Positions 57,921 to 64,000 of a DNA stretch of 64,000 nucleotides are shown one piece after another. A program made the position numbers and the translations under genes. The notes under the pieces were generated by a model that was given only the letters and a program-made list of their open reading frames with translations, did no database searches and was not told the DNA's origin. Position 1 is the first letter of the stretch. Each line of letters opens with the position of its first letter. Source of the DNA: Trypanosoma brucei (lineage: Eukaryota); assembly GCA_000002445.1 (NCBI GenBank), contig CP000068.1:512001-576000 (forward strand), read 5' to 3'.

Positions 57921-60900
57921 ATGCAACAACAGCAACAACAGAAACACTTGGTAGGCTCCGGCGCTACGAACAACACAATGGGTAGAGTTGATTTCTTACA
58001 ATTACCCGCTTCATGTAATGCTGAAGGCAGCAGCAGGTGGCGTTGGCGGTTTCAAACACAGCAACAGCGGCATCAACACGGTGACAGTGACAGCGGTGAA
58101 GGTGAAGATGGAGGAGTTTTTTATAACGTTCAGAGAGTTGAGGATGATGGGAAGGAGACTGACATCATGTATGTTGCTAAAACTATAGGAAACGAAGTGC
58201 TTCACCATGAAGTAACCCCACGTTACCCAAACAGTCGCAGCTCCATAAATGACGAGTTATCATCTGCGACCGGAAGCAGCAGCAGCAATGATATATGTGA
58301 GGAGCCCCTCCCTCTTTACTTTATCCGTAATGCGGGGAAGCGCAGGATCGGCCCCGTGTGCGAGTCCGTCACGGAGAAAGAACGAACCCACTTTTCCACC
58401 GAGAGTGTCAGAAAAGCCGATATTACCCCGCCTACTGAACCTTTACAGGTGGAAATAATATCAAAACGAACCTCATACATCGGCTTACATGTATTTCAGG
58501 AACAGAATGAGATTGTGGCGCACGTAGAAGAAGAGAAACACAGCAGCGACGATTCCGATTACCGAGAACAACGTGAAGGCGACACCCCAATGGTCCCAAG
58601 CTTTGTGTACTACAGTGCGCCGCGCCGCGGGCAACACACTTCTGAAAGCGAGGAATATGCCACAGAGTTTGATGAGAGTTGCGCACCAGCAACAAACAAT
58701 GAACACCACCACGCGTCACCACTAAAACCAACACTAATAAAAAAACGATGTTATATACCTGTACCCTCACCACCCGAAGGCCATACAAAGGTCAGCATGA
58801 GTTACCATACATCCATACAATCAGCAACACCACCTTCGGAAATAACATCGCCATTGCAAGTTAGCTTTATACGCAGCAAGTTATGCGGTAACTACAGGTC
58901 AGAAGCTGAGGCACAGCTTCCGATGAGTATTGAAGCGATAAAAGGTGCTTTCCAGAGGTCAGATAAGTCAGCAAAAGCAACGCTGCCCCCGTCTATGAGA
59001 CGGCAAGCAAGGGAGTGCAAGCCACAGCGTCAGCAGCAACCTGAATGCTTTCGTGAGCGAAGAGAAGTAAGTTCTTCTTCATCTGAAGACGAATACAACG
59101 GAGTGATGATACCCGCAAAAGAAGGCAGGAGGAATGCACACACATTTAAAAAGGTTAACACTGTCAGAGAACAAGAACACAAAAACGGGGGTCTAAAAGA
59201 AGAGCAACAGATGAGGGAGAGCGATATTCAAAAGAATAGAGCACAACAAGTTGTTTTTGGTTTTATGCCAAAGCAAAATCACAAACACACAGAGGTGCAC
59301 GAAGCATGTGATGAGCAAATGCCAGTGAGTGTGTGTGGTATTCTCGAACAACCACTTTCTATGGCTCATGTGTTTGACAGCTTAATGAAAGATGCGGAGG
59401 TGCACGAAGCATGTGATGAGCAAATGCCAGTGAATGTGTGTGATATTCTCGAACAACCACTTTCTATGGCTCATGTGTTTGACAGCTTAATGAAAGATGC
59501 GGAGGTGCACGAAGCATGTGATGAGCAAATGCCAGTGAATGTGTGTGATATTCTCGAACAACCACTTTCCATGGCTCATGTGTTTGACAGCTTAATGAAA
59601 GATGCGGAGGTGCACGAAGCATGTGATGAGCAAATGCCAGTGAATGTGTGTGATATTCTCGAACAACCACTTTCTATGGCTCATGTGTTTGACAGCTTAA
59701 TGAAAGATGCGGAGGTGCACGAAGCATGTGATGAGCAAATGCCAGTGAGTGTGTGTGATATTCTCGAACAACCACTTTCCATGGCTCATGTGTTTGACAG
59801 CTTAATGAAAGATGCGGAGGTGCACGAAGCATGTGATGAGCAAATGCCAGTGAGTGTGTGTGGTATTCTCGAACAACCACTTTCCATGGCTCATGTGTTT
59901 GACAGCTTAATGAAAGATGCGGAGGTGCACGAAGCATGTGATGAGCAAATGCCAGTGAATGTGTGTGATATTCTCGAACAACCACTTTCTATGGCTCATG
60001 TGTTTGACAGCTTAATGAAAGATGCGGAGGTGCACGAAGCATGTGATGAGCAAATGCCAGTGAATGTGTGTGATATTCTCGAACAACCACTTTCCATGGC
60101 TCATGTGTTTGACAGCTTAATGAAAGATGCGGAGGTGCACGAAGCATGTGATGAGCAAATGCCAGTGAATGTGTGTGATATTCTCGAACAACCACTTTCT
60201 ATGGCTCATGTGTTTGACAGCTTAATGAAAGATGCGGAGGTGCACGAAGCATGTGATGAGCAAATGCCAGTGAGTGTGTGTGATATTCTCGAACAACCAC
60301 TTTCCATGGCTCATGTGTTTGACAGCTTAATGAAAGATGCGGAGGTGCACGAAGCATGTGATGAGCAAATGCCAGTGAATGTGTGTGATATTCTCGAACA
60401 ACCACTTTCTATGGCTCATGTGTTTGACAGCTTAATGAAAGATGCGGAGGTGCACGAAGCATGTGATGAGCAAATGCCAGTGAATGTGTGTGATATTCTC
60501 GAACAACCACTTTCCATGGCTCATGTGTTTGACAGCTTAATGAAAGATGCGGAGGTGCACGAAGCATGTGATGAGCAAATGCCAGTGAGTGTGTGTGATA
60601 TTCTCGAACAACCACTTTCCATGGCTCATGTGTTTGACAGCTTAATGAAAGATGCGGAGGTGCACGAAGCATGTGATGAGCAAATGCCAGTGAGTGTGTG
60701 TGGTATTCTCGAACAACCACTTTCCATGGCTCATGTGTTTGACAGCTTAATGAAAGATGCGGAGGTGCACGAAGCATGTGATGAGCAAATGCCAGTGAGT
60801 GTGTGTGGTATTCTCGAACAACCACTTTCCATGGCTCATGTGTTTGACAGCTTAATGAAAGATGCGGAGGTGCACGAAGCATGTGATGAGCAAATGCCAG

Positions 60901-63900: not shown

Positions 63901-64000
63901 TCCTTCCCGATCGAACGTACGGTGGTGTCGAGAGTGCCATTTTTGGTTGTGATGTGTCTCAGTGGCCTGGTGATTTTGAGAAACGGGAACAGCATTGTCA
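57921..64000 (+). CDS. very large repetitive protein, 3'-truncated by the window end; about 457-aa unique N-terminus, 30 x 35-aa tandem repeats, at least 519-aa unique C-terminal region
   Basis: I translated it by hand in the frame with positions congruent to 0 mod 3. There is an in-frame TGA at 57777, the first ATG at 57921 (MQQQQQQKHLVGSG...), and no stop through 64000. That explains why it is absent from the stop-delimited ORF track. The repeat unit is EVHEAC DEQMPV(S/N)VC(G/D)ILEQPLSMA(H/D)VFDSLMKDA. Confidence 0.75.
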   Translation, partial: MQQQQQQKHLVGSGATNNTMGRVDFLQLPASCNAEGSSRWRWRFQTQQQRHQHGDSDSGEGEDGGVFYNVQRVEDDGKETDIMYVAKTIGNEVLHHEVTPRYPNSRSSINDELSSATGSSSSNDICEEPLPLYFIRNAGKRRIGPVCESVTEKERTHFSTESVRKADITPPTEPLQVEIISKRTSYIGLHVFQEQNEIVAHVEEEKHSSDDSDYREQREGDTPMVPSFVYYSAPRRGQHTSESEEYATEFDESCAPATNNEHHHASPLKPTLIKKRCYIPVPSPPEGHTKVSMSYHTSIQSATPPSEITSPLQVSFIRSKLCGNYRSEAEAQLPMSIEAIKGAFQRSDKSAKATLPPSMRRQARECKPQRQQQPECFRERREVSSSSSEDEYNGVMIPAKEGRRNAHTFKKVNTVREQEHKNGGLKEEQQMRESDIQKNRAQQVVFGFMPKQNHKHTEVHEACDEQMPVSVCGILEQPLSMAHVFDSLMKDAEVHEACDEQMPVNVCDILEQPLSMAHVFDSLMKDAEVHEACDEQMPVNVCDILEQPLSMAHVFDSLMKDAEVHEACDEQMPVNVCDILEQPLSMAHVFDSLMKDAEVHEACDEQMPVSVCDILEQPLSMAHVFDSLMKDAEVHEACDEQMPVSVCGILEQPLSMAHVFDSLMKDAEVHEACDEQMPVNVCDILEQPLSMAHVFDSLMKDAEVHEACDEQMPVNVCDILEQPLSMAHVFDSLMKDAEVHEACDEQMPVNVCDILEQPLSMAHVFDSLMKDAEVHEACDEQMPVSVCDILEQPLSMAHVFDSLMKDAEVHEACDEQMPVNVCDILEQPLSMAHVFDSLMKDAEVHEACDEQMPVNVCDILEQPLSMAHVFDSLMKDAEVHEACDEQMPVSVCDILEQPLSMAHVFDSLMKDAEVHEACDEQMPVSVCGILEQPLSMAHVFDSLMKDAEVHEACDEQMPVSVCGILEQPLSMAHVFDSLMKDAEVHEACDEQMPVNVCGILEQPLSMAHVFDSLMKDAEVHEACDEQMPVNVCDILEQPLSMAHVFDSLMKDAEVHEACDEQMPVSVCGILEQPLSMADVFDSLMKDAEVHEACDEQMPVNVCGILEQPLSMAHVFDSLMKDAEVHEACDEQMPVNVCDILEQPLSMAHVFDSLMKDAEVHEACDEQMPVSVCGILEQPLSMAHVFDSLMKDAEVHEACDEQMPVSVCGILEQPLSMAHVFDSLMKDAEVHEACDEQMPVNVCDILEQPLSMAHVFDSLMKDAEVHEACDEQMPVSVCGILEQPLSMAHVFDSLMKDAEVHEACDEQMPVNVCDILEQPLSMAHVFDSLMKDAEVHEACDEQMPVNVCDILEQPLSMADVFDSLMKDAEVHEACDEQMPVSVCGILEQPLSMAHVFDSLMKDAEVHEACDEQMPVSVCGILEQPLSMAHVFDSLMKDAEVHEACDEQMPVNVCDILEQPLSMADVFDSLMKDAEVHEACDEQMPVSVCGILEQPLSMAHVFDSLMKDAEVHEACDEKTILLVVRETNVVVHQLCAERELSPLLRFGRYLKSVIGTVCSVVGGVVGLGTLSPHLFKGFVVEGKKTSCLIPRVSGYPFKKCSYLPKGSLMVVMLMDAEGRQVLTKHFVLNSGSLGLFKELTVMADEDAASRQDRVLNVSRRLRNAVKLIGGIEGCVSVADSPQNPGRLRLQVMPRHVRTSKLISLWEVSVIPSIIITEIASKPDLFLFSLSGGIAHYSMKVPRAACRGDTRNMSWIYEKGEIQTDALDKLSVRRCRHRPNCGDGLSTHCLTVEAVQNLMHGEMVEVGLEHLSGSKGETSRQECGNSLTNGRGRSTSSVAISAVPDVRESAIDDQVMRVVPWSPSAFVRDPIVSRDRRVLGHSDAPRLSPSLGSLSLATGESDQHPAHCALVRLGPLSSAKQETRTNENRVGALQVAGDDTSLNGLYERKRLGLLDFVRAGRPDAPKTKVLSDRTQSGSDSPQGMGVRLPRTAVARQFLPDRTYGGVESAIFGCDVSQWPGDFEKREQHC
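59292..62441 (+). repeat. tandem array of 30 near-identical 105-bp units (coding, 35 aa each), followed by a truncated 31st unit
   Basis: The period is exactly 105 bp, and 62442 equals 59292 plus 30 x 105. Units differ only at about 4 positions (aat/agt, gat/ggt, tct/tcc, cat/gat). This is not a CRISPR array: there are no unique spacers, and the period is continuous and in-frame. Confidence 0.95.

Follow-up and report, generated by a model that had tools for sequence, protein, structure and literature searches.

The window analysed here is a 64,000-nt stretch of Trypanosoma brucei DNA (contig CP000068.1, positions 512,001 to 576,000), and its 3' end is occupied by a + strand reading frame that begins at ATG 57921 and contains a long array of near-identical 35-residue units. 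An earlier note, made from the sequence of the window, had described this frame as a giant gene of more than 2026 codons that was missing from a stop-delimited list of open reading frames (ORFs). Translation confirms the frame, which runs from 57921 to 64000 through 2026 codons with 0 stops, and the gene is absent from the ORF list, as the note had said, because the window ends at codon 2026. The gene is nevertheless a known one and not a discovery. The feature is almost certainly the 5' three-quarters of Tb927.5.1850 on the + strand, with a gene model that includes ATG 57921, and what the note took for an unseen gene with an unrecognised repeat is publicly annotated as a 2624-aa hypothetical protein. 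The gene has the old identifier Tb05.1P6.650 and the records XP_844859.1, AAZ11300.1 and UniProt Q57ZQ4 (our entry P0005); XP_844859.1 is labelled "hypothetical protein, conserved" and is assigned to chromosome 5 of T. b. brucei TREU927. Residues 1-2026 of this record and the window translation show 0 mismatches, with 30 units in both. The complete product has a mass of about 290 kDa and a pI of 4.8. A further 598 codons lie past the end of the window before the stop of Tb927.5.1850 is reached, so that the stop immediately after 64000 that the note had considered does not exist.

The position of the start codon was established from tagging primers. In its table of primers (PMC9981465, supplementary file 2), TrypTag gives an N- and a C-terminal primer for Tb927.5.1850. 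The N-terminal primer is an exact match to 57841-57920 and ends directly 5' of the ATG, and the C-terminal primer encodes ...WTPEVTGKSGSESVTPESTSESGNEEA, the C-terminus of XP_844859.1. Because the primers match both the locus and the C-terminus of the protein, the start is ATG 57921 and the gene is Tb927.5.1850; the annotated start codon (57921-57923, +) rests on the primer match and on the protein N-terminus, MQQQQQQKHL. The expected chromosomal neighbourhood was also matched, by upstream genes in the window and by downstream genes in the orthologous locus of T. b. gambiense DAL972. Upstream, two genes with Pfam Phospholipase_B matches (49028-51007 and 53098-55083) correspond to p67, Tb927.5.1810 and Tb927.5.1830 (identifiers from PMC8053727). 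The 3' side of the DAL972 locus carries an AAA/Vps4_C protein and ecotin, and by size and domain the genes downstream there fit Tb927.5.1860, fidgetin (Tb927.5.1870; PMC6144804) and ISP2 (Tb927.5.1880; PMC2659362). Tb927.5.1850 thus sits in a + strand polycistronic unit, 3' of the two p67 genes and Tb927.5.1840, and nothing that we found contradicts its identity.

The + strand is the coding strand, because the improbability of a frame without stops, the codon usage, the strandedness of the large ORFs and the in-frame indel relative to DAL972 all point the same way. The open span that contains the gene, 57780-63998 (+), comprises 2073 codons, more than any other open stretch in the window's six frames; it is preceded by an in-frame stop at 57777-57779, after which 57921 is the next ATG. 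For the 976 unique in-window codons, the frequency of stop trinucleotides in the unique sequence predicts about 39 stops, and 0 are seen, giving a probability of no stop of 7e-18. A codon-usage log-likelihood trained on the other large ORFs of the window is positive solely in the + frame of 57921, and it is so in all three parts of the gene: 0.11 bits per codon in the N-terminus, 0.40 in the repeat unit and 0.05 in the post-array region, compared with 0.20 for the p67 control. In the upstream intergenic region the score is negative in all six frames. The 64 kb contain 16 ORFs of at least 250 aa, every one of them on the + strand, and large ORFs confined to one strand are the pattern of a kinetoplastid polycistronic unit. 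In comparison with DAL972, the unique coding parts have one indel, of 6 nt, in frame and located in the N-terminal region, versus 62 gap columns in the 2.8-kb upstream intergenic region. Between the in-frame stop and the start codon, a polypyrimidine tract, ttctttctttttgttactccttctgc, was read at 57797-57825 (+), with the first AG at 57826-57827. A polypyrimidine tract followed by AG is an established mark of kinetoplastid trans-splice sites, and this AG is a plausible candidate for the spliced-leader acceptor, which would give a 5' untranslated region (UTR) of about 93 nt.

The central part of the protein is a single tandem array. Tandem Repeats Finder (TRF) reports it at 59292-62464, where 30.2 copies follow one another at a period of 105 bp, free of indels and with 98% matches. 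As resolved in a table of units, it consists of 30 complete units of 105 bp and 35 aa (59292-62441, +), followed by a truncated 31st unit (EVHEACDE; 62442-62464, +) that merges into unique sequence. The array forms residues 458-1507, with the unit consensus EVHEACDEQMPVNVCDILEQPLSMAHVFDSLMKDA. Variation among units is limited to nucleotide positions 38, 47, 69 and 76. Three of these sites change the amino acid (Ser/Asn at residue 13, Gly/Asp at residue 16 and His/Asp at residue 26) and one is synonymous (TCT/TCC at Ser23, with TCT in 11 units). The CAT to GAT change that replaces His26 by Asp occurs in 3 units, and all four combinations of Ser/Asn with Gly/Asp are found. Each unit has a net charge of -7 and carries two Cys and two His (H3, C6, C15 and H26). 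His3 and both Cys are invariant in 30/30 units; His26 is present in 27/30. The array as a whole has a net charge of -200, a pI of 4.05 and 60 Cys. An AlphaFold2 (AF2) model of eight units, made from a single sequence, is all-helical with a strict 35-residue period and helices of about 13, 10 and 4 residues per unit, at a predicted local distance difference test score (pLDDT) of 55. A Foldseek search with this model found nothing in the PDB at E <= 0.001, and the best matches (E >= 0.88) were generic TPR, ARM and PPR solenoids.

The order of the unit types is not uniform. Across units 1-15 (59292-60866), blocks of the kind AATC-AACC-AATC-GACC(-GGCC) appear three times, and the first half of the TREU927 array shows recurring blocks of 4-5 unit types; TRF itself reports the 105-bp period alone and no higher-order period. 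The pattern suggests that the array grew by duplication of blocks of 4-5 units.

The ORF list contains ten "ORFs" of 68-173 aa (MVVREYHTHSLAFAHHMLRAPPHLSL...) on the - strand over the array (59464-62400). From the ORF list, the frame stops and the codon usage, these are non-coding mirror images of the array, which is also how the earlier note had read them; the strongest support for that reading now comes from protein identity, primers, codon usage and strandedness. The note's more particular argument, that the minus-strand stops coincide with a synonymous + strand site, needs qualification. The 11 TCT units do coincide exactly with the 11 TAG stops of one minus frame, which accounts for eight of the ten ORFs. 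The other two (61046-61252 and 61886-62092) occupy another minus frame, in which each unit has a TGA unless it carries the nonsynonymous CAT to GAT change, as three do, and the argument therefore does not extend to them. Stops in the array number 90 and 112 in the other two + frames. That the minus-strand ORFs should be real genes, with the + frame incidental, is vanishingly improbable. Their presence in a mechanical ORF list speaks for them, but the best minus frame is broken 11 times and the other two 27-30 times, all three minus frames have negative codon-usage scores throughout, every large ORF of the 64-kb window is on the + strand, and the + frame is an annotated protein; on these grounds we reject them as genes.

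The array is flanked by unique regions that differ in character. The N-terminal region (457 aa; 57921-59291, +), examined by translation and composition, begins with poly-Q and is rich in S, E, Q and R, with a grand average of hydropathy of -1.03; its composition suggests that it is probably disordered. These 457 aa match no Pfam family, and there is no hydrophobic signal sequence at their start. Translation and composition of the in-window post-array region (62465-64000, +, residues ~1516-2026) show a mildly basic segment (pI 9.0 for residues 1508-2026, 519 aa). Kyte-Doolittle averages over 19 residues peak at 1551-1569 (VIGTVCSVVGGVVGLGTLS, 1.83) and at 1699-1717 (1.69). An exhaustive HMMER search with the in-window post-array segment against 1.84 billion representative sequences returned T. 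brucei-group matches alone. Residues 2027-2624 (598 aa), past the window, end in a Ser/Thr/Pro-rich tail. A single-sequence AF2 model of the post-array region, built on the T. equiperdum relative described below, has a pLDDT of 34.8, and residues 2027-2624 are largely helical in it at very low confidence. A match to the Pfam family DUF7623 (PF24610) falls at residues ~2228-2265 (22.9 bits, E 9.3e-5, profile positions 1-39 of 64) and is treated here as a lead; no enzymatic or other Pfam domain was found anywhere in the Tb927.5.1850 protein. PMC13309793 describes DUF7623 as a largely trypanosomatid-specific domain that is tied to calpain-family proteins and that, jointly with FAZ1, is over-represented in proteins with large repeats. 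The architecture given in the earlier note (a poly-Q start, an S/E-rich N-terminus, 30 Cys-containing units and a unique C-terminal region running off the window) agrees with all of this.

Relatives detectable by sequence comparison appear to be confined to the T. brucei group. They are DAL972 CBH11117.1 (P0002; 2031 aa, 13 units, with a proper stop), T. b. equiperdum RHW72626.1 (P0003; 591 aa) and T. equiperdum SCU71510.1 (P0004; 1121 aa, with the complete post-array region intact). The orthologues have in common the 35-aa unit, the upstream synteny and N- and C-terminal unique regions that are 96-99% identical. They differ in the array: DAL972 has 13 units in a gap-free locus versus 30 in TREU927, a difference to which assembly collapse may contribute, and it lacks the Asp16 variant, which occurs in 16 TREU927 units and 0 DAL972 units, while Lys1 and Asn29 variants are found in DAL972. 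By sequence, the unit variants show concerted evolution, and both this and the unit blocks are consistent with an array that has expanded and been homogenised through unequal recombination of several units at a time.

To describe constraint we computed dN/dS (omega) between TREU927 and DAL972 for the in-window parts and compared the last 598 aa as protein. In the N-terminus 7 differences are nonsynonymous and 8 synonymous (omega 0.23); for the in-window post-array segment (62442-63998) these counts are 17 and 3 (omega 1.8). Among neighbouring genes the corresponding counts are 0 and 5 for p67 and 2 and 8 for a PPR-like gene (omega 0.079). The post-array ratio departs strongly from that of the neighbouring genes (2 nonsynonymous, 13 synonymous; Fisher p 3e-5). 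At the protein level, 17 differences in the 519-aa post-array segment contrast with 4 in the last 598 aa (p 0.0015). Diversifying selection could account for the excess, as could a relaxation of constraint in a disordered linker, and the counts are too small to decide between the two. Because the substitution counts differ from region to region, Tb927.5.1850 can be described as an N-terminus under constraint, followed by a homogenised array, then by a linker that is either unconstrained or diversifying, and finally by a C-terminal domain that is more conserved.

The 105-bp array breaks assembly and annotation in other strains. The two equiperdum gene models are split at the array: RHW72626.1 ends in ...SLMKDAECTKHVMSKCQ, a +1-shifted unit, and SCU71510.1 begins at a Met inside the last unit. 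The shifted end suggests a single-base assembly error. DAL972 also contains a second, "fragment" copy with 10 units (P0001) on FN554968.1, 1337568-1362136, taken in reverse (L001), where the gene spans L001 10001-14569. It is flanked by two 100-N gaps (L001 5915-6014 and 14572-14671) and adjoins a convergent array of the ISG65/75 family, and the 2144 nt 3' of its array match the full copy (515608-541703) without a single difference. On this evidence it looks like a misplaced duplicate contig and not a true paralogue.

Searches with tandem repeats require care. On the array, the Pfam models Ribophorin_II_2nd and KaiB gave E-values that strengthen with the number of units in the query (1.5e-6 at 4 units, 8e-16 at 10). 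Taken individually, no stretch reaches significance, and one unit alone has no match. Because the E-values scale with unit number, we regard these matches as artefacts of repeat summation and reject them. Another comparison is with the giant repeat cytoskeletal proteins of T. brucei, such as the MARPs, FAZ1 and the calpain-like ClpGM6. Tb927.5.1850 resembles them in being a giant protein with a long central array of near-identical units, unique ends and variable copy number. It differs in that its unit is strongly acidic and contains Cys, and in that it does not match the FAZ1 or calpain Pfam models; nor do its units match the repeats of MARP, FAZ1 or ClpGM6 in sequence.

With these facts in view, we tentatively favour the reading that the product of Tb927.5.1850 is a non-enzymatic structural scaffold, probably associated with the cytoskeleton, as a possibility that may well prove wrong. 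The acidic helical array would serve as a spacer or rod of variable length, and anchoring may fall to the better conserved C-terminal domain, in which the DUF7623-like motif lies. The likeliest location would be the cytoskeleton or the flagellum, because of the analogy with giant trypanosome repeat proteins and the usual partners of DUF7623. The earlier note, which had correctly placed the DNA in a trypanosomatid, had suggested a cytoskeletal, flagellar or surface-associated protein as a generalisation from trypanosomatid proteins of this architecture. Support comes from the lack of an enzymatic Pfam domain, the 35-residue helical period, the conservation of the last 598 aa and the partial DUF7623 match. 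A number of observations weigh against it. The DUF7623 match is below threshold (22.9 versus a Pfam gathering score of 27), and the AF2 models, at pLDDT 34.8 and 55, are of low confidence. The strongly acidic array would not bind the acidic surface of tubulin directly, and classical microtubule-associated repeats are basic. The post-array segment shows no purifying selection and is compatible with the neutral expectation (p 0.44). Direct evidence that the protein is produced was not found. Tagging was unsuccessful at either end: TrypTag lists "tagging attempted" for both termini, with no cell line and no localisation (PMC9981465). The identifiers and accessions of Tb927.5.1850 occur in none of the open-access main texts searched, so that the gene goes without an open-access mention there; the examined portions of the supplements of four genome-wide studies (PMC12047770, PMC13309793, PMC4765897 and PMC5724185), a large protein-complex mass spectrometry study among them, contain no match to it.

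Other functions for the array would follow from its composition or its period. It could be a modular metal-binding region, holding at least 30 Zn2+ or other divalent ions, or a calsequestrin-like Ca2+ buffer. Each unit offers His3, Cys6, Cys15 and His26 together with eight acidic residues, the net charge of -7 per unit and the array pI of 4.05 are favourable, the HxxC spacing falls on a predicted helix, and His3 and the Cys are invariant, with the Asp that replaces His26 also a possible ligand. This invariance is hardly informative, however, in units that are 98% identical in DNA through recent homogenisation. The arrangement H-x2-C-x8-C-x10-H is no known zinc-finger pattern, no zinc-finger or EF-hand Pfam model matches even at E <= 10, and the model at pLDDT 55 gives no structural support, so that we consider metal binding unlikely. 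A C2H2 zinc-finger array in particular is rejected, since the unit does not follow C-x2-4-C-x12-H-x3-5-H and has no Pfam match. A broader proposal, that the acidic His/Cys/Cys/His unit is an undescribed helical repeat of the T. brucei group which binds a divalent metal and whose copy number tunes structural length or capacity, we hold to be quite unlikely; if true, and taken together with the neutral-like or positively selected segment 3' of the array, it would mean that Tb927.5.1850 is a rapidly evolving lineage-specific structural innovation and not a "conserved hypothetical". A still more specific function, as a PPR- or TALE-like reader of nucleic acid in which each unit recognises one base and positions 13 and 16 specify it, is very improbable. 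The unit has exactly the 35 aa of a PPR and is likewise predicted to be helical, the near-identical units vary at 3 positions with all Ser/Asn by Gly/Asp combinations represented, a phmmer search with the full protein aligned about 8 units to the designer PPR 6een (E 9e-4), and a 6een chain has the top Foldseek query TM-score (0.41). Yet a 10-unit query loses the designer PPR match and ranks a KHDC3 repeat protein first, no Foldseek E-value is below 0.88, a unit charge of -7 cannot be reconciled with binding to a polyanion, and position 16 is invariant in DAL972. At E <= 10 the Pfam models for PPR and TPR yield no match, and one unit alone has no match of any kind. We accordingly rejected three candidates in this class: membership of the PPR family, for which neither 10 units nor one gave a profile match (PF01535, PF13041, PF12854, PF13812 and PF17177) at E <= 10, the charge being a further difference; the PDB matches 6een and KHDC3, which reflect summation of repeat-versus-repeat scores and a top match that shifts with query length; and a TALE-like reading of repeat-variable residues, on account of the charge and the lack of position-16 variation in DAL972.

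Two further explanations concern the gene as a whole. A membrane or surface repeat antigen, anchored by a hydrophobic segment 3' of the array, would accord with the two hydrophobic peaks above 1.6, with the fast evolution of the post-array segment and with the fact that large tandem-repeat proteins of trypanosomatids are often immunodominant. Against this, the N-terminus (MQQQQQQKHLVGSGATNN) has no signal-peptide-like hydrophobic stretch, a lone internal anchor after 1550 residues would be unusual, and two Glu lie inside the second peak; the peaks themselves are Kyte-Doolittle averages. We judge a surface antigen improbable. It is distinctly improbable, too, that the frame represents a lineage-specific ORF, young or in decay, which is transcribed within the polycistron but non-functional, and which is largely a recently amplified 105-bp satellite left open by chance. 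The post-array segment has no homologue outside the T. brucei group among the 1.84 billion representatives, its 17 nonsynonymous and 3 synonymous changes are neutral-like, and the search for a proteomic or literature trace or a TrypTag line found none. On the other hand, 976 unique codons are open (P 7e-18) with 598 more beyond them, codon usage favours the + frame in all three parts, omega is 0.23 at the N-terminus, and just 4 changes fall in the last 598 aa. The frame is moreover intact in DAL972 CBH11117.1, including its stop, the post-array region is intact in T. equiperdum SCU71510.1, and the 3.2-kb array has no frame-breaking indel.

Tb927.5.1850 is among the larger T. brucei proteins, at 290 kDa, and its array differs more than two-fold in length between subspecies assemblies. 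It could reasonably be chosen for targeted study, say as a repeat antigen or a strain marker, but it does not stand out as a candidate. The locus also illustrates that stop-delimited ORF lists hide genes that run off a window, and that tandem arrays yield misleading antisense ORFs in their place.

Several minor observations were made elsewhere in the window. Tb927.5.1840, a small gene of about 153 aa (~56042-56503, +), lies 3' of p67 and 5' of the giant gene. It was identified by an exact match of its C-terminal primer from TrypTag to 56421-56500, and the ORF list shows a 161-aa GTG ORF alone at this position. TrypTag gives its localisation as "endocytic, cytoplasm[points]" (PMC9981465). The lysosomal glycoprotein p67 is present as a tandem pair in TREU927 and as one copy in the DAL972 locus (L002), where blastn places both window copies on the same interval; from these alignments, the pair has probably been collapsed in the DAL972 assembly. 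The second largest ORF of the window (16937-22192, +, 1751 aa) has no Pfam match at E <= 0.01. Finally, a 4.4-kb stretch around 8001-12000, between a protein-kinase ORF (5728-7821) and a PP2C ORF (12268-13563), is unusually poor in G+C (0.31-0.38) and contains no ORF that reaches 250 aa. It holds the simple repeats (GAGGA)14.6 at 8229-8301 and (TTA)16.7 at 11395-11444, and is probably a long UTR or an intergenic region.

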